This document shows positions 1-22,800 of a DNA stretch of 34,244 nt, one piece after another; position 1 is the first letter of the stretch, and every line of letters starts with the position of its first letter. The notes beneath the pieces were generated by a model that did not search any database, was not told the DNA's origin, and saw only the letters and a list, made by a program, of their open reading frames with translations. The DNA comes from Candidatus Hydrogenedentota bacterium (lineage in GTDB: Bacteria; Hydrogenedentota; Hydrogenedentia; Hydrogenedentales; SLHB01), in assembly GCA_026387845.1 (NCBI GenBank), contig JAPLKX010000254.1, positions 1 to 34,244 on the forward strand, written 5' to 3'. A program made the position numbers and the translations under genes.

Positions 1-1152
1 CCCGTCATCATGATCACGGCGCATGCGTCGGTGGAAACGGCCATCGAAGCCATGAAACTGGGCGCCGCCGATTACATCATGAAGCCGTTCACCAACGATG
101 AGATGCGGCTGCTGGTGAAACGGGCCATCGAGCAGCGCAACCTGCTGCGCGAGAACGTGGCGTTGCGCAAGGACCAGGCGGCACGCGGCAAGATCGACAA
201 CATCATCGGCAAGAGCCCGGCGATCCACACCGTCATGGGGATGATTCGCCGCGTGGCTTCGCTGCCCAGCACGGTGGCCATACACGGCGAGAGCGGCACC
301 GGCAAGGAGTTGGTGGCGCGGGCCATTCACCAGCTCAGCGACCGGGCCGGCAAGCCTTTTGTGGCGATCAACTGCGGCGGGATTCCGGAAAACCTGCTCG
401 AGAGCGAACTGTTCGGCCACAAGAAGGGATCGTTCACGGGCGCCGTCGAAGATAAGGAAGGCCTGATGGTCGTGGCGGACGGCGGGACGCTGTTCCTCGA
501 CGAGATCGGAGAGATGCCGTTGGCGCTGCAGGTGAAACTGTTGCGGGTGCTCGACAACAGCAGCGTGATGCCGGTAGGCGGCGTGAGCGAAGTGACGGTC
601 GACGTGCGGATTATCTCCGCCACGAACAGAGACCTCGAAAAGATGGTGCGGGAAAACCTGTTCCGCAAGGATCTCTATTACCGGCTCAACGTGATTCCAA
701 TCGTGGTGCCGCCGCTGCGTGATCGCGTGGACGACATCCCGCTGTTGGCGCGCCACTTTGTCGCGGGCCACGCGAGGCGAATGGGCCTGCAGGAATTGAC
801 GATCACTCAGGGGGCGCTCGATGCTCTATGCGCGTTTACGTGGGCGGGGAACGTCCGGGAGTTGGAAAACGTGTTGGAGCGGGCGGTGGCGCTGTGCAAC
901 GGGTCCGTGGTCGACGTGCAGGATCTCCCGCCGGAGGTGGCCAACTATGTGGCGGGCCCGCGGGCCGATATCGCGATGTTGCCTCCGGGCGGCCTTGACC
1001 TGGAGTACGTGGTTTCGGATTTGGAAGTCAACCTCATCAAACAGGCGCTGCAGCGGGGCAAGTTCTCGCAAAAGAAAGCGGCGGAACTGCTTGGGCTGAG
1101 CCCGCGGTCGTTCCGGTATCGGTTGCAGAAATACGGGCTCGACACCGATTAA
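1..1152 (+). CDS. sigma-54-dependent response regulator (NtrC/Fis family), 5' end cut by window edge
   Basis: Frame 1 is open from base 1. Receiver-domain tail AADYIMKPF. AAA+ domain with Walker A GESGTGKE, GAFTGA-type loop GSFTGA and Walker B LFLDEIGE. C-terminal Fis-type HTH KKAAELLGLSPRSFRYRLQKYG. TAA stop at 1150-1152. Confidence 0.9.
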   Translation, partial: PVIMITAHASVETAIEAMKLGAADYIMKPFTNDEMRLLVKRAIEQRNLLRENVALRKDQAARGKIDNIIGKSPAIHTVMGMIRRVASLPSTVAIHGESGTGKELVARAIHQLSDRAGKPFVAINCGGIPENLLESELFGHKKGSFTGAVEDKEGLMVVADGGTLFLDEIGEMPLALQVKLLRVLDNSSVMPVGGVSEVTVDVRIISATNRDLEKMVRENLFRKDLYYRLNVIPIVVPPLRDRVDDIPLLARHFVAGHARRMGLQELTITQGALDALCAFTWAGNVRELENVLERAVALCNGSVVDVQDLPPEVANYVAGPRADIAMLPPGGLDLEYVVSDLEVNLIKQALQRGKFSQKKAAELLGLSPRSFRYRLQKYGLDTD

Positions 1153-1245
1153 GCGCACGAAAATAGGCTTCCCGTTTGAACCGCCTTATTGTCCGCCGTA
1201 TACTTCTTGCGGTGTTACCCTTCTATGCCAACCGGAGTAAACGGA

Positions 1246-8979: not shown

Positions 8980-9189
8980 GTCCGCTGTCCCCTTATTCTT
9001 AACCTTTTAGATGCCGCCGAAGGCAAAAAGGTTTGAGCGGGGAAAAAGAATGAGGGACATTGTACAGGAAACCCGTTGGGACGCCCGCCGCCCGCGCCGC
9101 AACACCCCTCGCCGGGCTCCAACACGGACGATACCGTAACCCAAATCAGCCTTGACATAACACGCCCTCGCTTCTCAACCACGCCATCA

Positions 9190-9255
9190 ACGTCCGCACC
9201 AACACCCTCTGTTTTATATAGCCTTCTTGGTGCACTTTTTGACCAGAAAAGGCGG
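9190..9255 (+). repeat. copy A of a ~65-bp imperfect direct repeat
   Basis: ACGTCCGCACCAACACCCTCTGTTTTATATAGCCTTCTTGGTGCACTTTTTGACCAGAAAAGGCGG aligns without gaps to 10102-10167 with about 9 mismatches. Confidence 0.8.
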
Positions 9256-9439: not shown

Positions 9440-9901
9440 CTATTTTGGGTGTGATGTTCGCAGTACGGCGAGGGCTTCGGCGAGCGCCCTCTTCCTGAAC
9501 TGTTGCAAAAAATGCAACAGTTGACTCCCGGTCGACTTCACCCGGTAGCCGACCGAGATGATCGCATCGAGGTTGTAGAAGGAAGTCTGGTAGACCTTGC
9601 CGTCCTCGGCAGTATGTGCAAATTTTGCACATACTGCCTCGCGGTCCAACTCCCCTTCTTTCAACACGTTGCGCAGATGTTTGGTGATGACGCTCCGCTC
9701 CGTGTCGAAAAGCGCCGCCATCTGCTTCTGCGTGAGCCAAACCGTGTCCCTCTCCAATCGCACATCGAGCGAGACTTGGCCGTCCGGCGCGTGATAGAGC
9801 ACAATGGCGCTTCCGCCATATCCGGCGGTTTCCTCACGCACCATCCGGTTTTCCACGCACGCTTTGCTTTTGGCCTTCATCTTTCGCCCATCCTTTGCCA
9901 T
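9440..9901 (-). pseudogene. RhuM-family (virulence/Fic-associated) protein, N-terminal fragment only
   Basis: IVLYHAPDGQVSLDVRLERDTVWLTQKQMAALFDTERSVITKHLRNVLKEGELDREAVCAKFAHTAEDGKVYQTSFYNLDAIISVGYRVKS follows the conserved RhuM N-terminal pattern. It then diverges and stops ~35 aa later, at a CTGTTGCA-N5-TGCAACAG hairpin (9500-9521). Start codon uncertain. Confidence 0.6.
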
Positions 9902-10101
9902 CTTACAATTCTCCCTCGAATTGCCAGCGTAGAAAGCCAGCCGGAAGGTAGTATGGCGACCTTTTCCGTCCGCGGCAACCCGTGCCTTTCTGCAAGAGTT
10001 CTCCGCAAATGGCCGCATGTTCTCGTAGGTCATTTAACTGGCGAGAAATGCGCAGTCTTGAAGTCATAATTTGTGACTTCAAGTCCCTGGTGCTGCCGCC
10101 G

Positions 10102-10167
10102 ACGCCCGCACCAACACCCTTTGTTTTATATAGGCTTCTTGTTGCACGTTTTGAGCAGGAGAGGCGA
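10102..10167 (+). repeat. copy B of the ~65-bp direct repeat
   Basis: ACGCCCGCACCAACACCCTTTGTTTTATATAGGCTTCTTGTTGCACGTTTTGAGCAGGAGAGGCGA. Same orientation as copy A. The two copies bracket the RhuM fragment. Confidence 0.8.
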
Positions 10168-10278
10168 AGAACACCTCTTGCTTGTTGTTTCCCCGCTGCG
10201 TGACATGGTGCGATGCACCAGGGACGACTATGCGCGCCAGTCGCCCCGCCTCATGTCAATATAAACGGTGACTGTCCC

Positions 10279-10512
10279 GAATGGCACTGACTTAAGCTCA
10301 ACCCGTTTCCGGTAAATAGCTTGTGCATGAGTCCATCTGTTCTGGGCCTCACGATGCAGGAACCTGTCATCATGCACGTGAAAAAGCCCGTTTCTATTAC
10401 GTCTTACGTACGACACTTGGCGAGGTTGCTCTTCGGGTAGCTGGATACTAACCACATCGTTTCAGTGCAAGTCTTTTTCTATGAGTAGGTTGCGGTTAAG
10501 TCAGTGCCATTC
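10279..10512. mobile_element. 234-bp MITE-like non-autonomous element with perfect 17-bp terminal inverted repeats and 11-bp target-site duplication
   Basis: TIR-L GAATGGCACTGACTTAA (10279-10295). TIR-R TTAAGTCAGTGCCATTC (10496-10512) is its exact reverse complement. The TIR extends to 25 bp with 2 mismatches. Identical GTGACTGTCCC lies immediately outside both ends (10268-10278 and 10513-10523). Confidence 0.6.
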
Positions 10513-10719
10513 GTGACTGTCCCCATTTACCGCCATTTACCGGTCCCCATTTACCGATTTACCGAACCTTGGCATTTGTTCCGTTACCTGAACGAGCATT
10601 GTTTCCGGTTCAACAGCCGCAAGATGACTGATTCTGATCGGTTTCAGATGCTTCTTGGAATGATTAGCGGGAAGCGCTTGACCTATGCTACACTAACGAA
10701 TGAGACACCAGCTTACTAA
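10504..10719 (+). pseudogene. C-terminal remnant of an IS1595-family (ISXO2-like) transposase
   Basis: PWHLFRYLNEHCFRFNSRKMTDSDRFQMLLGMISGKRLTYATL matches the typical IS1595 transposase tail pattern (HLxRYLxEFxFRFNxR...RF...L...RLTYxxL). Only about 50 aa are recognisable. The N-terminal part of the ORF is MITE/TSD/tandem-repeat sequence. Confidence 0.55.
10523..10564 (+). repeat. short tandem repeat of CCATTTACCG
   Basis: CCATTTACCG at 10523-10532, 10533-10542 and 10547-10556, plus a partial ATTTACCG at 10557-10564. Confidence 0.8.
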
Positions 10720-10753
10720 ATACCCTTCGGACCCCCGAAGAGGGGTAGGCATA

Positions 10754-10897
10754 ATGGAAGAAAAAGACGAGAACAAGGGAAGTGATTCCCCGTTCGACAA
10801 GTTTAAGAATTTGAGCAAGCGCCTTGTGCATGTGCCCAAGAAGGAAGTAGACCGCAAGGAAAAAGCACAGCGGGCAAAGAAACGCTTTGCGAAATAG
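10754..10897 (+). CDS. small lysine-rich hypothetical protein (47 aa); coding status uncertain
   Basis: ATG at 10754 with GAGGGG about 9 nt upstream. MEEKDENKGSDSPFDKFKNLSKRLVHVPKKEVDRKEKAQRAKKRFAK. TAG stop. No recognisable domain. Confidence 0.3.
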   Translation: MEEKDENKGSDSPFDKFKNLSKRLVHVPKKEVDRKEKAQRAKKRFAK

Positions 10898-10902
10898 AAT
10901 TG

Positions 10903-10973
10903 TGCCCCCGGCGGGGTTCGGACCCGCATGATCGGTTTTAAAGACCGACATCCTTCCGGTAGATGACGGGGGC
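10903..10973 (-). tRNA. tRNA with anticodon UUA (ochre-suppressor type; Lys/Gln/Tyr-derived origin not determinable); atypical T-loop
   Basis: Minus-strand cloverleaf: GCCCCCG-UC-AUCU-ACCGGAA-GGAU-G-UCGGU-CUUUAAA-ACCGA-UCAU-GCGGG-UCCGAAC-CCCGC-CGGGGGC-A. Seven-bp all-Watson-Crick acceptor stem, U8 and GG in the D-loop. Perfect 5-bp anticodon stem with a 7-nt loop having U33 and A37, so positions 34-36 are UUA. Oddities: a 4-nt variable loop, C instead of U at position 55, and no encoded CCA. Confidence 0.6.
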
Positions 10974-11130
10974 ATGATAAGGTGGGGCTCGCCTCGCCAA
11001 TGCTACGACAGGGCAACTATCGTAGCACGACTGTTAGCTCCACCAGTGGGCAAGCCCGCTTGACGCTGGTGGAGCTTCTGCTGATAAGGCGTGGTATTGC
11101 ATACCAGCATCCTTTCCGGTTATCACCAAA

Positions 11131-11817
11131 TCACCGCGATTCGGTGCTAGTGCCTTTAGGCCCGGACTTAGCCAAGCACCAAAGCCCGTTCTTGTTCTTT
11201 GCAAACACATCCGGCTCTCGCTTTAGCAGAGTCCTGAGCGTATTTTTGTTGCTTATGTTTCCACCGCGCTCCCGGATTTCCGTACAAAGTGTGCTTAGGC
11301 TCATTGGTGTTTGTTTGTCGGCGAGTATCTCGGCAACGTATGCGGTAACTTTCTTGGCGGGGTGAAAACGATCTACTTTTGCTTTCTCGACTGTCACAAG
11401 AGTCAGGTTTTGTTGCTGTATGTCACCTTTTCTAAATACGACTTTGCCATTATCTTTCTTAATGAGCCTGATGACGCCCTTTTCCGAAAGACGTGTTGCC
11501 GCTTTGTAGAAATTTGGATATTCACTACGCGGGTTAGTAATCTTTCGTCCGCCTTCTTGGGCAGCTTTGATTATTTCAATCAATGACCATTCGCTGGAAG
11601 AACTGTTAACGACAGCCTGCACGATTTCGCTAGGTCCTATATTTTCGTAAGGGTTTATAGCGGGAATGGTTGCTTGCTTCTCTCGTCTCAGAAGCGCTTC
11701 CACCTTTTCAATAGCCGCAATAACCTCTGTAAGACGAGCTATTTCCTTTCTGTGGCCCTCTATCTCATTCTCAAGATTAGCCTTAAGGCTCTTTAGCTCT
11801 TGAATTGAGTCAGACAT
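11131..11817 (-). CDS. coiled-coil protein with two winged-helix regions, the C-terminal one HARE-HTH-like
   Basis: ATG at 11817 preceded by AAGGAGAA; TGA stop. N-terminal heptad-rich segment SIQELKSLKANLENEIEGHRKEIARLTEVIAAIEKVEALLRREK. C-terminal VTAYVAEILADKQTPMSLSTLCTEIRERGGNISNKNTLRTLLKREPDVFAKNKNGLWCLA follows the HARE-HTH pattern (ILxxxxxPMxxxEL ... F.....G.W.L). Low-GC gene. Confidence 0.7.
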   Translation of the reverse strand: MSDSIQELKSLKANLENEIEGHRKEIARLTEVIAAIEKVEALLRREKQATIPAINPYENIGPSEIVQAVVNSSSSEWSLIEIIKAAQEGGRKITNPRSEYPNFYKAATRLSEKGVIRLIKKDNGKVVFRKGDIQQQNLTLVTVEKAKVDRFHPAKKVTAYVAEILADKQTPMSLSTLCTEIRERGGNISNKNTLRTLLKREPDVFAKNKNGLWCLAKSGPKGTSTESR

Positions 11818-11901
11818 GACTATTTTCTCCTTAGCAAGATGCAGCTTGTAGGTTTTATGTTGACAAATGTTGTCATATGTGGTACCTTTAATTAAAGAAA
11901 A

Positions 11902-11974
11902 TGGCCGACCGGGGATTCGAACCCCGAACTAACGATTCGCAGAAACGTCGTTCTATCCATTGAACTAGTCGGCC
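11902..11974 (-). tRNA. tRNA with non-canonical anticodon arm (nominal anticodon UGC; isotype uncertain)
   Basis: GGCCGAC-UA-GUUC-AAUGGAUA-GAAC-G-ACGUU-UCUGCGA-AUCGU-UAGUU-CGGGG-UUCGAAU-CCCCG-GUCGGCC-A (73 nt). Canonical acceptor, D and T arms, with a UUCGAAU T-loop. The anticodon stem has a U-U mismatch and the loop has C at position 33. There is no G3:U70, so it is not a standard tRNA-Ala. The sub-string CUGCGAA resembles Arg(ACG)-type loops (CUACGAA), but that register does not pair. No encoded CCA; a TTTTCTTT tract follows. Confidence 0.7.
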
Positions 11975-11978
11975 TTCT

Positions 11979-12008
11979 GGGCACTCAGAGTGTCACCTCT
12001 GAGTGCCC
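11979..12008. other. perfect 12-bp-stem hairpin 4 nt upstream of the tRNA 5' end
   Basis: GGGCACTCAGAG (11979-11990), loop TGTCAC, CTCTGAGTGCCC (11997-12008), followed on the plus strand by TTCTATTT. May insulate the tRNA from the divergent promoter region. Confidence 0.5.
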
Positions 12009-12076
12009 TTCTATTTAAGATCGTACCACACGCCGCACAGCTTTGTCAATCGAAAAGTGAACGCCCCGCCATGTTT

Positions 12077-12172
12077 AAACTTGGCCGCTAGACAAACGCT
12101 AGACAGCCCCTTGACAAGGTGTACACCTGTTATGCATGTTGTACATGTACTTATTGCACACAAATGCCATTC
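12077..12172 (+). promoter_or_regulatory. candidate promoter/operator cluster upstream of the large methyltransferase-fusion gene
   Basis: Direct repeats GCTAGACA at 12077-12084 and 12088-12095 (11-bp period). TTGACA at 12101-12106. 10-bp palindromes GGTGTACACC (12108-12117) and GTACATGTAC (12131-12140) share a GTACA core. Possible sigma-70 promoter TTGCAC (12144-12149), 17-nt spacer, TGATAT (12167-12172). All are pattern matches only. Confidence 0.35.
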
Positions 12173-12436
12173 CTGATGATATTTTCAGATGACGAAATGG
12201 TGCCCCCCCTTCCCCTTGCTCTAACCAAAATGTACCACTACCAAGAAATGGTCCCGTTTTTCGCTCGACATGCCCCTCTTGATGAGTCAAGTATATTATC
12301 GCCGAAATAAGAGTGGGGTGGCCGAATCTCGTAGTCTGTCCGGGAGTTGCCCGGAATTGCCCACGAGAGAATAAGGGGGATTTTCGAAGGGTCGGCGATT
12401 TCGTGTATTGTAGTGGTTGGACTTAGGGGTAAGGAT

Positions 12437-15400
12437 ATGGGAACGACTGAGCACACGATTAATGATGCAATCGCGGAAGTTTTGAGGGAAACTCGGCGTG
12501 TGTGGCGGAACAGCAAATTTGTGAGTTCCGAGAACACGGGGATGCTGAAACATAGCGCTAAGCAGCCGGACATAGTGATTATTGAACCCAATATGTCGCC
12601 GGTAGTAATCGAAAACGAGGTGATGCCTGCTGCCAATGTGGAATCAGAAGCAATATCACGTCTTGGGCAGAAGATTCGGTATGCAGGACGAACCATTCTG
12701 TCTTGTATTGCTTTGAGGTCACCATTGCGCCTGCGGGAAAAGCATGGGCAGTCATTGCTGAATGATTTGCGTCAGGCAGATGATCTGGAGATGGCACTTT
12801 TCACGGGTGTTTCTCGTGCGGAGTATACGCGCTGGCCGCGATCAGGGTGGATCAGCGCTAGCATTCCAGACGTTTCTGTTGTTGTGCAAACCGCATCAGT
12901 TCCGCCGGAAGTTGTCGAACAGGCCGCAGAAGAATTAATCAGTGGCGTAAGTGATGCTGCCGGTCTAATGGAGGATATTGGAGCAACCAACCCGGGGGCG
13001 ATTGAAAAGATATGCCGAGAACTGCGGCAAGAGAACTGCGAGCAGACTTTGCGTATGGCTGCAACTATTCTGGCTAATGCGTTTGTATTTCAAGAGACTT
13101 TGGCCGGCGGACCGGGTGAGTTGAAGCTTGTCAAATCTCTGGATCAACTTCGGTCTTCCAGTGGGGGACTTTCAAGACCTGGTGTTTTGAGCGAGTGGCG
13201 AAACATTCTGAAAGTAAACTACTGGCCGATTTTCGACATCGCACGGCGGATTCTAGAAGTCATCCCAGCCGGCGAGACGAAGCCGCTCATAGACTGTCTT
13301 GCAACGACCGCAGAACGATTACTGGCAAATCGGGTGATGCGGTCGCACGACGTGACGGGAGCTGTTTTCCAGAGACTTATTGTAGACAGAAAATTTTTGG
13401 CTGCGTACTACACGACGCCGGCGTCGGCTGCGTTGCTGGCAGGGTTGGCAATCTCGTCGGATCACCCGCCGGGGGGCGGATCATGGGCCAATGCAGAAGA
13501 TGTAAAAAGGCTTCGGATTGCGGATTTTGCTTGCGGGACCGGCACCCTTCTGACAACAGCTTACCAACGAATTGGACAATTGCATGAGGCGGCGGGTGGA
13601 GATGTTGAGGCAATCCATCCGGAGATGATGGAAAGCAGCCTCGTGGGTTGCGATGTCTTGCCAGCGGCAGCACATTTGACTGCGTCCATGTTGGCCGGCG
13701 GACATCCAACTGTGAAATACGATCAGAGCTGCATTTTCACTGTTGCTTACGGAAAGCAGGAGGAAGGGCACGTCGCGCTTGGGTCGTTGGATCTGTTAAA
13801 TCCCCAGGGTCAGTTAGAAATTCTTGCGATTACGGCCAAGGCTATTGGAAGCTCGGGTGAATCAGATAAGGACACGTGGCAGTCGCTTCCTCATGCGTCG
13901 TTCGACCTTGTTATTATGAACCCGCCGTTTACTCGTGCGACCAACCATGAGGCAGGAAAAGCCAACGTACCAAATCCTGTGTTTGCAGCTTTCAGTTCGA
14001 GTTCTGAAGAACAAAGGATGATGGGAAAGGCAACTGAAAAACTGACAAAAGGCACGGCTGCTCACGGGAACGCAGGAGAAGCTTCTATCTTTCTTGTTCT
14101 CGGTGATAAGAAGGTAAAGGCAGGGGGAGTCTTGGCATTAGTTATGCCGCTCAGTTTCATGTCAGGTGAGTCTTGGGAAGGTTGTAGGTCACTGTTGGCA
14201 AAGAATTACGATGAGCTCATTCTTCTGTCAATTGCTGGGGCGGGCGATAATGACATTTCTTTTTCGGCAGATACAGGTATGGGCGAATGCCTGTTGATTG
14301 GGAAAAAGTGTCCGTCGGCGACGAATCGGGCGACGTTTGTCGTGCTGAATGAACGCCCGACATATAGGCTTGTTGGATCAAACCTTGCCGAGCAGATCGC
14401 GGATCTCATCCGCAATGGAAATGTGAGACGCCTTGAAGACGGACCTCTAGGAGGTTCTCCCATCCTTTTCGGAGATGAGGTAGTTGGACATGCGCTTGAC
14501 GCACCTTTGCCAGAGTCGGGCCCTTGGAATTTGGCACGGATAAGCGATCTGTCTTTGGCGCAAGCGTCGTATCAGATGATAGTAGAGCAGAGGGTTTGGT
14601 TGCCGGGGATGCGCGCCAGAGATGCTGTCGCGGTACCCATTACTTCAGTTGAAACGGTGGGACAGGTGGGACCAATTGATCGCGATATCAACGGCTATAC
14701 GCCGGAGGGAGCCATACGGGGGCCTTTTGATACGCCTGATGTGAGGCCGGGAACGGTACCAACTTACCCTGTTCTTTGGTCACATGATGCTGCACGTGAG
14801 CGTAGTATGGAATTCGATGCGGATTGTGAGGGAATTGCAAGGCGGGGAAGTAACGCCGAAGAGCAGATGGCTCTTGAGACGAAGTTGGCAGCCGTATGGG
14901 ATACAGCTTCGCATTGCCACTTTAATCGTGATTTTCGATTCAACAGTCAAGCAACAGCAATGCAATACACACCACGGAAAACCATGGGAGGCCGCGCGTG
15001 GCTGTCGATTCAGCTTGCGTCCGATGATCTGGAAAAGGCTCTTGTTTTGTGGGCGAATACGTCTTTGGGACTGTTGTTGCGTTGGTGGCACTCGAACAAA
15101 CAACAGGCTGGAAGAGGAAGCGTTGCCAAATCTGCGCTCCAGACCTTACCTATACTTGACGTGACGAGGCTCAGCGCGAAGAGACTTCGTGAAGCAGTGC
15201 GGTTGTTTGAGAGTTTCAAGAGGAAAGAACTTTTGCCGATCAATGAAATCGAACATGATGCGGTGCGTGCGGAAATGGACTCTGAGTTCGCCCTAAAGGT
15301 GCTGGGGCTTGATCCGGAGTTGGTTAAGACGGGTGGGACGCTTGAACTGCTGAGAAATAAGCTGGGGCGGGAACCTTCGGTAAGAGGCCTGAAGAAGTAG
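12437..15400 (+). CDS. ~988-aa fusion protein: PD-(D/E)xK-like N-terminal region + gamma-class N6-adenine (amino) methyltransferase core + uncharacterised ~400-aa C-terminal region (Type IIG/IIL-like architecture)
   Basis: First ATG is at 12437 (the ORF is open from a TTG at 12347). MTase motif I ADFACGTGTLL (nt 13523-13546 for DFACGTGT) precedes motif IV MNPPFTR (NPPF at nt 13919-13930). AAYYTTPASAALLAGL helix lies upstream, and GCDVLPAAAHLTASML lies between the two motifs. N-terminus has AIAEVL...KQPDIVIIEPNMSPVVIENEV, i.e. PD-x13-ExE. TAG stop. Confidence 0.75.
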   Translation: MGTTEHTINDAIAEVLRETRRVWRNSKFVSSENTGMLKHSAKQPDIVIIEPNMSPVVIENEVMPAANVESEAISRLGQKIRYAGRTILSCIALRSPLRLREKHGQSLLNDLRQADDLEMALFTGVSRAEYTRWPRSGWISASIPDVSVVVQTASVPPEVVEQAAEELISGVSDAAGLMEDIGATNPGAIEKICRELRQENCEQTLRMAATILANAFVFQETLAGGPGELKLVKSLDQLRSSSGGLSRPGVLSEWRNILKVNYWPIFDIARRILEVIPAGETKPLIDCLATTAERLLANRVMRSHDVTGAVFQRLIVDRKFLAAYYTTPASAALLAGLAISSDHPPGGGSWANAEDVKRLRIADFACGTGTLLTTAYQRIGQLHEAAGGDVEAIHPEMMESSLVGCDVLPAAAHLTASMLAGGHPTVKYDQSCIFTVAYGKQEEGHVALGSLDLLNPQGQLEILAITAKAIGSSGESDKDTWQSLPHASFDLVIMNPPFTRATNHEAGKANVPNPVFAAFSSSSEEQRMMGKATEKLTKGTAAHGNAGEASIFLVLGDKKVKAGGVLALVMPLSFMSGESWEGCRSLLAKNYDELILLSIAGAGDNDISFSADTGMGECLLIGKKCPSATNRATFVVLNERPTYRLVGSNLAEQIADLIRNGNVRRLEDGPLGGSPILFGDEVVGHALDAPLPESGPWNLARISDLSLAQASYQMIVEQRVWLPGMRARDAVAVPITSVETVGQVGPIDRDINGYTPEGAIRGPFDTPDVRPGTVPTYPVLWSHDAARERSMEFDADCEGIARRGSNAEEQMALETKLAAVWDTASHCHFNRDFRFNSQATAMQYTPRKTMGGRAWLSIQLASDDLEKALVLWANTSLGLLLRWWHSNKQQAGRGSVAKSALQTLPILDVTRLSAKRLREAVRLFESFKRKELLPINEIEHDAVRAEMDSEFALKVLGLDPELVKTGGTLELLRNKLGREPSVRGLKK

Positions 15401-21450: not shown

Positions 21451-22542
21451 CTAACCCTTGAACGATCCATTCTTATAGAACGGGAATTCTTCAGTCACTA
21501 TTTCCATATCTTTCGGGCCGGCGGTGAGGCGTGTTCCGGGCATGGACAACTCGACCGGAATGTAAGCCATCCCGATTCCATAACCGACGCTGGGCCCGTA
21601 GCTGCCGCTGGTCACCACCCCCACGGGGCGGCCTTCGTGAAACACCTCGTAACCCGGGCGCGGGGCCCGGCGGTCCATTGAACGGATGCCGGTTCGCACC
21701 TTGTACCGGCCGAGTTCGCGCTGCATCACGAGGAATTCCTTGGCGTGGAATTCGCTGTTCCAATCGATAAACCGTCCCATCCCGGCTTCGAGCGTGGTGT
21801 GTGATTCGTCGACGTCCTGGCCGTACAGGGTGTAGCCCATTTCGAGCCGGAGCGTGTCTCGCGCGCCAAGCCCTGCCGGCTCGACCGCCGGGTGCGCGGT
21901 GACCTCGCGCCAAAACGGCGCCGCCAGCGCGTTTGGGAGAAAGACTTCGTAGCCCAGTTCGCCCGTATACCCCGTGCGCGACACCAGCATCTCCGAACCT
22001 TGCCACTGCGTCCTGCAGCAGGTGAAATACTTGAGGGGCTCGATGTCGCGCAGGCCAAGGTCCAACAGGACGCGCCGCGACAGCGGCCCCTGGACGTCGA
22101 TCTTTGCGGTGCCGGCCGTGACGTCGGTGGCGAGGCAAACGCGGTAGAGGATTCGGGCGACTTTTTCGTAGGGGCCGGCGTTGGTGACCACGAACAACTC
22201 GTCTTCGCTGAGTTTCATGGCGATGACGTCGTCGATGATGCCGCCGCAGGTGTCGAGGATGCTCGAATACCGGCACCGGCCCACTTTGAGGCAGATCATG
22301 TCGTTGAACACCATCGCCTCGAGTGACCGTATGGCCTTGGGACCCTTGAGTCGGAACTCGCCCATGTGGCAGCAATCAAACACGGAACATTTGGATCGAG
22401 TGTGATGGTGCTCCTCGAGGATACCCTTGAACTGGACGGGCAACATCCATCCGTGGAACTCGGTCATTTTGGCGCCGCGCAGGATGTGTTCGTCGTAGAG
22501 AGGGGTTCTTTTGACGTTTCGTGCTTCCAGGACGGCTTTCAT
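21451..22542 (-). CDS. gcvT: aminomethyltransferase (glycine cleavage T protein)
   Basis: ATG at 22542 with AAGGAGG 5 nt upstream (the ORF-track start 22548 is GTG). KRTPLYDEHILRGAKMTEFHGWMLPVQF, GYTGELGYEVF. Confidence 0.93.
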   Translation of the reverse strand: MKAVLEARNVKRTPLYDEHILRGAKMTEFHGWMLPVQFKGILEEHHHTRSKCSVFDCCHMGEFRLKGPKAIRSLEAMVFNDMICLKVGRCRYSSILDTCGGIIDDVIAMKLSEDELFVVTNAGPYEKVARILYRVCLATDVTAGTAKIDVQGPLSRRVLLDLGLRDIEPLKYFTCCRTQWQGSEMLVSRTGYTGELGYEVFLPNALAAPFWREVTAHPAVEPAGLGARDTLRLEMGYTLYGQDVDESHTTLEAGMGRFIDWNSEFHAKEFLVMQRELGRYKVRTGIRSMDRRAPRPGYEVFHEGRPVGVVTSGSYGPSVGYGIGMAYIPVELSMPGTRLTAGPKDMEIVTEEFPFYKNGSFKG

Positions 22543-22800
22543 AGCCACCTCCTTGCCGGAGGCGATGACGCCTCCGACCTCGCGCGCCCCGCATCGCGCC
22601 GACCCGGAAGCCGGCTCATGCTTGGCGCACAGCTACCCGGCGCGCATCAGCGCGCCAGGCGCCCAGGCGAGCGGCAATCCTGGAACCCGCCGCTTCCTCG
22701 TGGTTCGTTCCACGCAAGTCGCCAGTCACGGCGGGAACATTCAACAGCGAGAATGTGCCACACCGGGGAGGGCCACGTCAAGCCGCCGCGTAACGCGGAT
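22543..22800 (-). promoter_or_regulatory. long structured 5' leader of the gcv operon with an SD-sequestering alternative hairpin (riboswitch-like expression platform; aptamer class not confirmed)
   Basis: About 260 nt without a credible ORF. RNA reads GGAGGCG-UCAU-CGCCUCC-GGC-AAGGAGG-UGGCU-AUG. The CGCCUCC arm (DNA 22569-22575) can pair either with GGAGGCG (22558-22564) or with the SD region GGAGGUG. Several further GC-rich hairpins lie upstream. Confidence 0.4.

Follow-up and report, generated by a model that had tools for sequence, protein, structure and literature searches.

The 34,244-nt contig JAPLKX010000254.1 from a Candidatus Hydrogenedentota bacterium, which in its whole length is referred to here as the window, carries at 10903-10973 on the minus strand a 71-nt tRNA gene with the anticodon UUA. 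The gene lies in the remnant of an IS1595-family transposon, which is truncated at its 5' side and spans 10552-12303. On the plus strand, the remnant begins with the last 54 codons and the TAA stop (10717-10719) of a transposase gene (10552-10719); tblastn with the transposases P0005 and P0006 recovers residues 258-311 only, and the first ∼257 codons are deleted. Behind the stop, the transposase frame continues as an extension at 10720-10785 that reads IPFGPPKRGRHNGRKRREQGK and then ends in TGA. A gene for a 47-aa basic protein (SPFDKF...VPKKEVDRKEKA; 10754-10897, plus strand) converges on the tRNA gene and stops 5 nt from its 3' end. The cargo on the minus strand consists, in order, of a promoter-like site, a hairpin, a second tRNA gene with the anticodon UGC, a gene for a 228-aa protein, a structured leader, and the tRNA(UUA) gene.

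The tRNA(UUA) gene is called by ARAGORN as tRNA-Stop with anticodon tta at 10902-10973 (-), and Rfam RF00005 (gathering score 29 bits) matches it from end to end (1-71) at 10903-10973 (-) with 54.3 bits, E = 3.6e-9, and zero non-canonical pairs flagged. The full tRNA reads GCCCCCG-UC-AUCU-ACCGGAA-GGAU-G-UCGGU-CUUUAAA-ACCGA-UCAU-GCGGG-UCCGAAC-CCCGC-CGGGGGC-A. The acceptor stem GCCCCCG/CGGGGGC is made of seven G-C pairs and is followed by U8 and C9, the D stem AUCU/GGAU includes a U13.G22 wobble, and the D loop ACCGGAA contains GG. A perfect 5-bp anticodon stem, UCGGU/ACCGA, closes the 7-nt loop CUUUAAA (10937-10943), which provides U33, the anticodon U34-U35-A36 (10939-10941), and A37. The variable loop UCAU has 4 nt, the T stem is GCGGG/CCCGC, and the T loop UCCGAAC has C at position 55. 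A73 is followed by CAA, and the CCA end is therefore not encoded. The conserved tertiary nucleotides U8, G18-G19, U33, a purine at position 37, T54, C56, and A58 are all present, and position 55 deviates (C, not U). A first-pass annotation of this DNA had described the same stems and loops, U33, A37, C55, the 4-nt variable loop, and the missing CCA, and each of these is correct on direct reading; its canonical register for UUA is likewise borne out by ARAGORN, which accepted the locus, and by Rfam. A BLAST search against E. coli genomes gave zero matches. Since the single-sequence fold is only modestly better than that of shuffles (z = -2.6), whether the cloverleaf could have arisen by chance is decided by comparison with its relatives.

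Relatives were sought in genomes, metagenomes, and viral contigs with a pattern composed of the anticodon arm and the T arm. The pattern matched twice in 185,579 species genomes and 14 times in JGI metagenomes; among 2.9 million viral contigs, three scans, one of them with the exact sequence, gave no instance of the tRNA. Four of the loci found in this way share the odd features of the window tRNA, namely L129 (near-identical), L131, L121, and L130. Five further members came from searches that made no use of the tRNA sequence: the small protein led to L140 and L141, and the transposase led to L142, L144, and L145. All five have UUA. A looser pattern in which the anticodon was free drew ordinary Trp, Cys, and Arg tRNAs together with amber suppressors and was used as a background set only. 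In an alignment of nine distinct homologues, 98.9% of cells are paired and 10 of the 21 pairs have changed on both sides, which none of 500 shuffles equalled. All four stems vary, while the CUUUAAA loop is unchanged in 9/9 members. This pattern of substitution shows that tRNA(UUA) is under purifying selection as a tRNA with an invariant loop, and the locus at 10903-10973 (-) is confirmed, at the level of sequence and fold, as a genuine tRNA gene with a canonical-register UUA anticodon.

The features that set the window tRNA apart from ordinary tRNAs recur throughout the family. The T loop is UCCGAAY, with C55, in 8/9 members, and the 4-nt variable loop, U8-C9, and A73 occur in 9/9; C55 is otherwise rare, being present in 13 of ∼1000 distinct tRNAs in the collected loci, six of which belong to the tRNA(UUA) family. 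The CCA end is encoded fully in L121 and partly in L142. That the gene is a pseudogene in decay, or a cloverleaf formed by chance in the junk DNA of an island, would agree with the position of the window copy in a dead element with a truncated transposase, with a 1-nt deletion in the 3' acceptor strand of the L131 tRNA, and with a C3.A70 mismatch in the L140 tRNA. We nevertheless hold this to be very improbable, because the family scores 54-60 bits against the Rfam tRNA model, the strong covariation contradicts it, and the odd features recur in homologues that share no more than 63-69% transposase identity with L129. As read from these comparisons, C55 and the 4-nt variable loop are family traits and not decay, so that of the two descriptions offered in the first-pass annotation, "decayed or specialised", the second holds and the first does not.

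The body of tRNA(UUA) has a recognizable likeness. In pairwise alignments against 1224 ARAGORN-predicted tRNAs, the closest tRNAs outside the family are tRNA-Glu, and in a family covariance model, which gives the window tRNA 91.6 bits and its members at least 88.9 bits, the top outsider is tRNA-Glu(UUC) with 66 bits. The pair U11-A24 is present in 9/9 members and U13.G22 in 8/9, alongside the 4-nt variable loop of all nine. A D stem of the form xUCU/GGAx, with U13.G22 and U11-A24, and the absence of nucleotide 47 are what we take to be the identity elements of glutamyl-tRNA synthetase in E. coli. The tRNA-Glu features U34, U35, and A37 are there as well, but position 36 is A where tRNA-Glu has C, and a single change, C36 to A, would turn UUC into UUA. 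The body thus appears nearest to tRNA-Glu and not to the tRNAs for Lys, Gln, or Tyr, from which the classical suppressors derive.

The tRNA gene travels with a defined mobile element. The gene order of transposase, small open reading frame (ORF), and antisense tRNA is also found in L129 and L141. L129 is nearly identical to the window copy, and its transposase, the frame of which is open up to the contig end, matches Pfam DDE_Tnp_IS1595 at 2e-38. The nearest full-length transposases, P0005, P0007, and P0008, are 63-69% identical to the L129 fragment, and their contigs each carry a downstream tRNA(UUA) on the opposite strand. Complete transposases with Zn_ribbon_IS1595 and DDE_Tnp_IS1595 are present in L142, L144, and L145, where inverted repeats of the form GGC(G/A)ATAATATACTTG(A/G)C enclose transposase and tRNA; they match perfectly for 23 nt in both L142 and L144, and in L145 they extend over 24 nt at 92%. 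The units so enclosed are flanked by 8-bp target duplications, CTTGTTCC for the 2.5-kb element of L142 (106-2634), GAAACAAA for the 3.3-kb element of L144 (54-3397), and CTTGTTTC for the 2.1-kb element of L145 (4220-6294). Target duplications of 8 bp are a hallmark of IS1595 (PMC8101967). Terminal repeats and 8-bp duplications around the units indicate that the whole unit, tRNA included, transposes. Judged by gene order and element boundaries, tRNA(UUA) is shown to be standard cargo of one clade of IS1595-family transposons.

The rest of the cargo varies, with Fic and P63C in L144, and L131 has the same cargo order as the window in another chromosomal context, surrounded by sulfatases and glycoside hydrolases. 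Plasmid and phage collections contained transposase relatives of at most 41% identity, and the inverted repeat occurs in viral contigs only in other subclades, those without the tRNA. In phage records, the tRNA aligned only in part with ordinary tRNAs, over no more than 41% of its length and with E ≥ 0.2, and the 1.7-kb region around the gene gave no match. The first-pass annotation was right to place the gene in horizontally acquired DNA, which is the transposon remnant, but the connection it drew to phages was not found, the carrier being an IS1595-family transposon.

In these elements, the tRNA gene stands tail to tail with the pair of transposase and small ORF, in most of them 5 nt from the small-ORF stop. 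This constant position at the junction could mean that the tRNA shape serves as an RNA or DNA structure that is never aminoacylated, either as a processing or termination signal where the transposase and cargo transcripts converge or as a tRNA-like handle on a longer leader-tRNA RNA. The leader immediately upstream of the tRNA gene (10974-11130, minus strand) forms two strong hairpins, the fold of 10895-11135 having a free energy of -101.8 kcal/mol (z = -3.75), and hairpins at matching places but with differing sequences precede the tRNA in L129, L131, and L140. RNAalifold on a MAFFT alignment of the leaders did not recover them and is uninformative here because the hairpins cannot be aligned. 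The rare C55 also calls to mind non-proteinogenic tRNAs. A purely structural role, however, would have no need for an invariant 7-nt anticodon loop while four stems vary, nor for the retention of U8, G18-G19, U33, A37, A58, and A73, and it sits poorly with the full CCA end in L121 and the partial one in L142. We therefore consider it unlikely.

A candidate target for a UAA-decoding tRNA is found within the same element. All seven transposase 3' ends of the clade (window, L129, L141, L142, L143, L144, and L145) have a TAA stop. The nine codons that follow it encode IPFGPPKRG, IPFGPPNRG, LPFGKPQRG, LPFEAPKRG, TGFGSPQRG, or IPFDPPQRG, with the consensus (I/L)PF(G/D/E)xPxRG. Their variation falls mostly on third positions, with 7, 4, and 17 extra character states at codon positions 1, 2, and 3, respectively; four codons are used for Arg (AGG, AGA, CGC, and CGG), and each of the four Gly codons occurs. 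Of 175 pairwise codon differences read in the transposase frame, 99 (57%) are synonymous, as compared to 12 of 154 in the second frame and 1 of 157 in the third. The last 40 codons of the transposase proper, with 256 of 550, bear the same signature. The share observed behind the stop was reached by 0/5000 column permutations. Amino-acid identity is similar on both sides of the stop (0.68 after it vs 0.65 in the transposase proper). This synonymous-share test shows that the nine codons behind the UAA have evolved under coding constraint in the frame of the transposase. The stretch from the TAA to the motif contains no start codon, which means that the motif can be translated only by passing the stop.

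The comparison with relatives that lack the tRNA, in which neither ARAGORN nor the family covariance model detected one, points in the same direction. Among these IS1595 relatives, TGA is the stop of P0012, P0009, and P0010, TAG is that of P0035 and of one viral copy, and P0043 has TAA followed by unrelated sequence. Neighbour-joining does not recover the elements with the tRNA as monophyletic, and P0008, which has the tRNA and TAA plus extension, is 74% identical to P0009, which ends in TGA without an extension, the two diverging only at the last residues. It follows from this pair and from the lack of monophyly that the tRNA module and the TAA-plus-extension come and go together. Our reading, which we judge probable though well short of certain, is that a functional, specialised tRNA of the ochre-suppressor type drives programmed readthrough of the UAA of the element's own transposase.

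The same tRNA might instead be general cargo, a useful or suppressor tRNA that gives the host or the element tolerance of nonsense mutations or acts as a decoy or replacement against anticodon nucleases, with no dedicated role at the stop; the conservation behind the stop would then stem from basal readthrough or another constraint. L121 and L130, which carry the same tRNA type without an IS1595 transposase, fit this alternative. So does the cargo, which varies and has a defence flavour: L144 has Fic and P63C, and next to the window copy lie a RhuM-like fragment and a methylase of type IIG-like character. The other UUA tRNAs that sit in tRNA clusters (L122, L124/L125, and L127) fit it as well. 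It would leave unexplained, however, the TAA in 7/7 transposases, the full coding signature of nine codons, and the joint loss of TAA-plus-extension and tRNA in close relatives, and basal UAA readthrough in bacteria is usually far too low for selection to act on. General cargo is hence a possible account of the family, but a clearly less probable one than programmed readthrough.

If tRNA(UUA) does drive readthrough, the process could run as follows. The tRNA would be transcribed from the cargo side, in the window probably from 12049-12020 through the tRNA(UGC) and 228-aa genes, processed, supplied with CCA, and charged, probably with Glu. Gln or Lys would also be possible because U35 is a major identity element that dominates recognition by the synthetases for these amino acids. 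The charged tRNA would compete with release factors 1 and 2 at the transposase UAA, and some ribosomes would continue into the extension, lengthening the transposase at its C-terminus by 21 aa in the window type, such that the level of the tRNA would set the ratio of the short to the extended form. Whether the private tRNA is an obligatory recoding factor, and the UAA a tRNA-titrated site that sets the isoform ratio and hence mobility, is a proposal for which we see about even prospects. Relatives without the extension look intact, which makes a regulatory function of the extension more likely than a catalytic one. The extension overlaps, in another frame, the Shine-Dalgarno sequence and start codon of the 47-aa ORF, and readthrough and translation of the small ORF therefore probably affect each other. 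C55 may hold suppression weak and the cost to the host low. That such a suppressor would be costly, as the first-pass annotation argued, is true in principle, as the host uses TAA, but the argument missed the likely client, the transposase stop of the element itself. A hairpin past the UAA that stimulates readthrough is not claimed, the structures being inconsistent relative to shuffles, and a frameshift from the extension into the small-ORF frame was ruled out, as there is no conserved slippery site and the position of the stop varies.

Several points weigh against programmed readthrough. The sample is small and in part biased: there are seven transposase ends and nine tRNAs, some of them closely related, and four of the tRNAs came from a pattern in which the loop was fixed. 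The tRNAs of L121 and L130 are not beside any IS1595 transposase, and the tRNA therefore also exists outside the transposon context. L143 has the extension, and its contig ends short of the expected place of the tRNA, while the sister contigs L158-L160 stop 1.2-1.8 kb past the transposase, where a more distant tRNA is possible. The conserved extension comprises only ∼9 residues, is without recognizable function, and is absent in active-looking relatives, and folding behind the stop gives modest hairpins that do not outperform shuffles in every case. C55, in place of the near-universal U55, could weaken the tRNA in translation. Finally, suppression is expected to be inefficient because UAA is recognised by both release factors.

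The remaining features of the window copy describe its state. The 47-aa ORF has homologues in the same place in L129, L131, L140/L141, L142, L144, and L145, and its protein falls into 11 representative clusters in a search of 1.84 billion proteins; PADLOC and Pfam returned nothing significant for it. In L131 (1461-1606, minus strand), as also in L137-L139, codon 2 of the homologue is an in-frame TAA instead of the GAA (Glu) of the window. This TAA is seen in three assemblies, and in the transposase-readthrough frame the same base change creates no stop. It fits either Glu insertion or plain decay of a dead element and, the element of L131 being decayed, is given little weight.

Upstream of the leader, the 228-aa cargo protein (11131-11817, minus strand) is encoded on the same strand as both tRNAs. 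It has an N-terminal coiled coil and a winged-helix/HARE-HTH-like C-terminus, as indicated by a weak Pfam WH_Rok match and by its homologue P0002 (HARE-HTH, 3e-4). The protein itself gave nothing significant with PADLOC and Pfam, and it has two members only among 5.8 billion proteins. The second odd tRNA gene (11902-11974, minus strand; ARAGORN, and 57.4 bits with Rfam) has the anticodon UGC by position, C33, and a U30.U40 mismatch; it lacks G3:U70, the Ala identity pair, has A20, and is nearest in its body to tRNA-Arg. Its syntenic homologue in L131 has the same loop, YCUGCGA, and about nine compensatory changes of stem pairs, which implies that tRNA(UGC) is under selection. A consensus scan located a sigma-70-like site (TTGACA-18-TACGAT, TG-extended) at 12020-12049 on the minus strand, followed by a hairpin at 11979-12008, and 12049-12020 is a candidate promoter for a transcript that includes tRNA(UGC), the 228-aa gene, and tRNA(UUA).

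The right terminal inverted repeat, GATGAGTCAAGTATATTATCGCC (12281-12303), is an exact match to GGCGATAATATACTTGAC, the inverted repeat of L144 and L145, and is followed by GAAATAAG at 12304-12311, presumed to be one copy of the target duplication. A left inverted repeat is missing from the window, even when four mismatches are allowed. A 268-bp unit resembling a miniature inverted-repeat transposable element, with 42-nt imperfect inverted repeats (86% complementary), lies at 10262-10529, ∼20 bp upstream of the truncated transposase, and marks the destroyed left part of the element; unrelated debris also lies to the left. The tRNA(UUA) gene, the small ORF, the 228-aa gene, the tRNA(UGC) gene, and the right repeat are intact. 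With the first ∼257 codons of the transposase gone, the window tRNA gene is left over, intact, from a dead copy and was probably orphaned recently.

The insertion sites of the clade are alike. The motif CCCCTTGTTTC or its complement GAAACAAGGGG occurs in the flanks of L142, L143, L144, and L145 and at 12304-12318 of the window, and L142 has a second, unoccupied copy at 31-41. This similarity suggests a target-sequence preference of this insertion sequence (IS) clade.

The neighbourhood of the element contains other island genes. An N6-adenine methyltransferase-like protein of 1017 aa with an NPPF motif and weak Eco57I, PglX, and type IIG matches is encoded at 12347-15400 (+), beginning ∼45 bp past the right end of the transposon, and a RhuM-like gene fragment (PADLOC PDC-S05) lies at 9440-10033 (-); together they make this a defence-type island. 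No phage genes are found in the window flanks of the element. The RhuM-like fragment is bracketed by a 72-nt direct repeat, 85% identical, at 9183-9254 and 10095-10166, which may have arisen as an att-like or promoter duplication belonging to a different small mobile unit. Farther away, a ZMP/ZTP riboswitch (pfl motif) at 22654-22739 (-), with 60.5 bits in Rfam vs a gathering score of 39, lies upstream of an ORF at 21451-22548 (-).

Additional observations concern UUA tRNAs at other loci. In L121, from a proteobacterial metagenome-assembled genome, a 70-nt tRNA-like minihelix lies directly upstream of tRNA(UUA) at 1117-1186 (-). The minihelix matches the Rfam model of transfer-messenger RNA (tmRNA) with 21 bits (E = 3e-5); its acceptor stem contains G3:U70, its T arm is like the tmRNA 3' end, and its tail is CCACC. 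It comes after a 157-aa winged-helix-like ORF that ends in TAA, with no IS1595 transposase nearby. A homology of this ORF to the 228-aa protein was marginal (E = 0.009 and 0.6), and the claim was dropped. Both L121 (∼975-1015) and L130 (∼1040-1080), which are proteobacterial-type loci, have a strong sigma-70-type promoter (TTGACA/TTGACT, 17-18 nt spacer, TATAGT) directed antisense into the 3' end of tRNA(UUA), an arrangement that recalls the convergent transcription of transposase and small ORF in the IS elements. Unrelated tRNA(UUA) genes occur in L122 (Spirosoma arboris), L124/L125, L127, and L132-L135, some of them in tRNA clusters; in L124/L125, tRNA(UUA) is 5 nt upstream of tRNA-Glu(UUC), and in L127 it is part of a 20-tRNA array. 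Natural tRNAs with a UUA anticodon are rare yet not confined to these IS elements.

The proposed system has partial counterparts among known ones. The classical ochre suppressors of E. coli (supB/glnU, supC/tyrT, and supG-supL/lysT) likewise have a canonical cloverleaf with UUA in the normal register, and like them, tRNA(UUA) would be expected to compete with release factors for UAA and, by wobble, for UAG. The classical suppressors, however, arose in the laboratory by single-base changes in essential host tRNAs, whereas tRNA(UUA) is a natural conserved family with a Glu-type body, C55, and A73, and is borne by a transposon. Recoded phages (crAss-like, Lak, and others, with TAG or TGA) resemble it in that a mobile element carries its own suppressor tRNA for in-frame stops, but here the carrier is a 2-3.3-kb Asp-Asp-Glu (DDE) transposon, and a single site at the end of the transposase gene takes the place of genome-wide recoding. 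To our knowledge, phages do not recode UAA. The -1 frameshifting of IS1 and IS3/IS911 and the readthrough of retroviral gag-pol similarly yield two isoforms by low-frequency recoding at a fixed site, as is proposed here, and an isoform ratio presumably set by the tRNA would be analogous to the frameshift-set OrfA/OrfAB ratio, presumably tuning mobility. Those systems rely on host tRNAs and on slippery sites or pseudoknots in cis, whereas here a stop would be read through and the element apparently supplies a tRNA in trans.

With the IS1595 family, these elements share the Zn-ribbon and DDE_Tnp_IS1595 transposase, terminal repeats starting with GG, and 8-bp duplications. The family has been described as elements with a single transposase gene (PMC8101967); unlike the described members, the elements reported here add a 47-aa ORF, a tRNA gene, and variable cargo. 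A literature search returned no description of a tRNA in any IS1595 element, nor of an IS-encoded suppressor.

UAA is considered the hardest stop codon to reassign, and we know of essentially no natural conserved UAA suppressor tRNAs in bacteria. If the proposal is true, tRNA(UUA) would be the first natural conserved UAA-decoding tRNA in bacteria with a defined client codon, and no insertion sequence before its carrier would be known to supply translational recoding machinery of its own. For genetic-code engineering, it would also be a tRNA scaffold of natural origin on which a UUA anticodon is tolerated. For genome annotation, it would mean that "tRNA-Stop/Sup" calls in bacterial islands can be functional transposon cargo and that an adjacent transposase ORF may be longer than annotated. 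For the transposon family, it would add a new route of self-regulation, parallel to IS1/IS3 frameshifting and phage recoding, within an element of 2-3 kb, and for the host, fitness would be touched as well, through low-level UAA readthrough at every host gene that ends in UAA.

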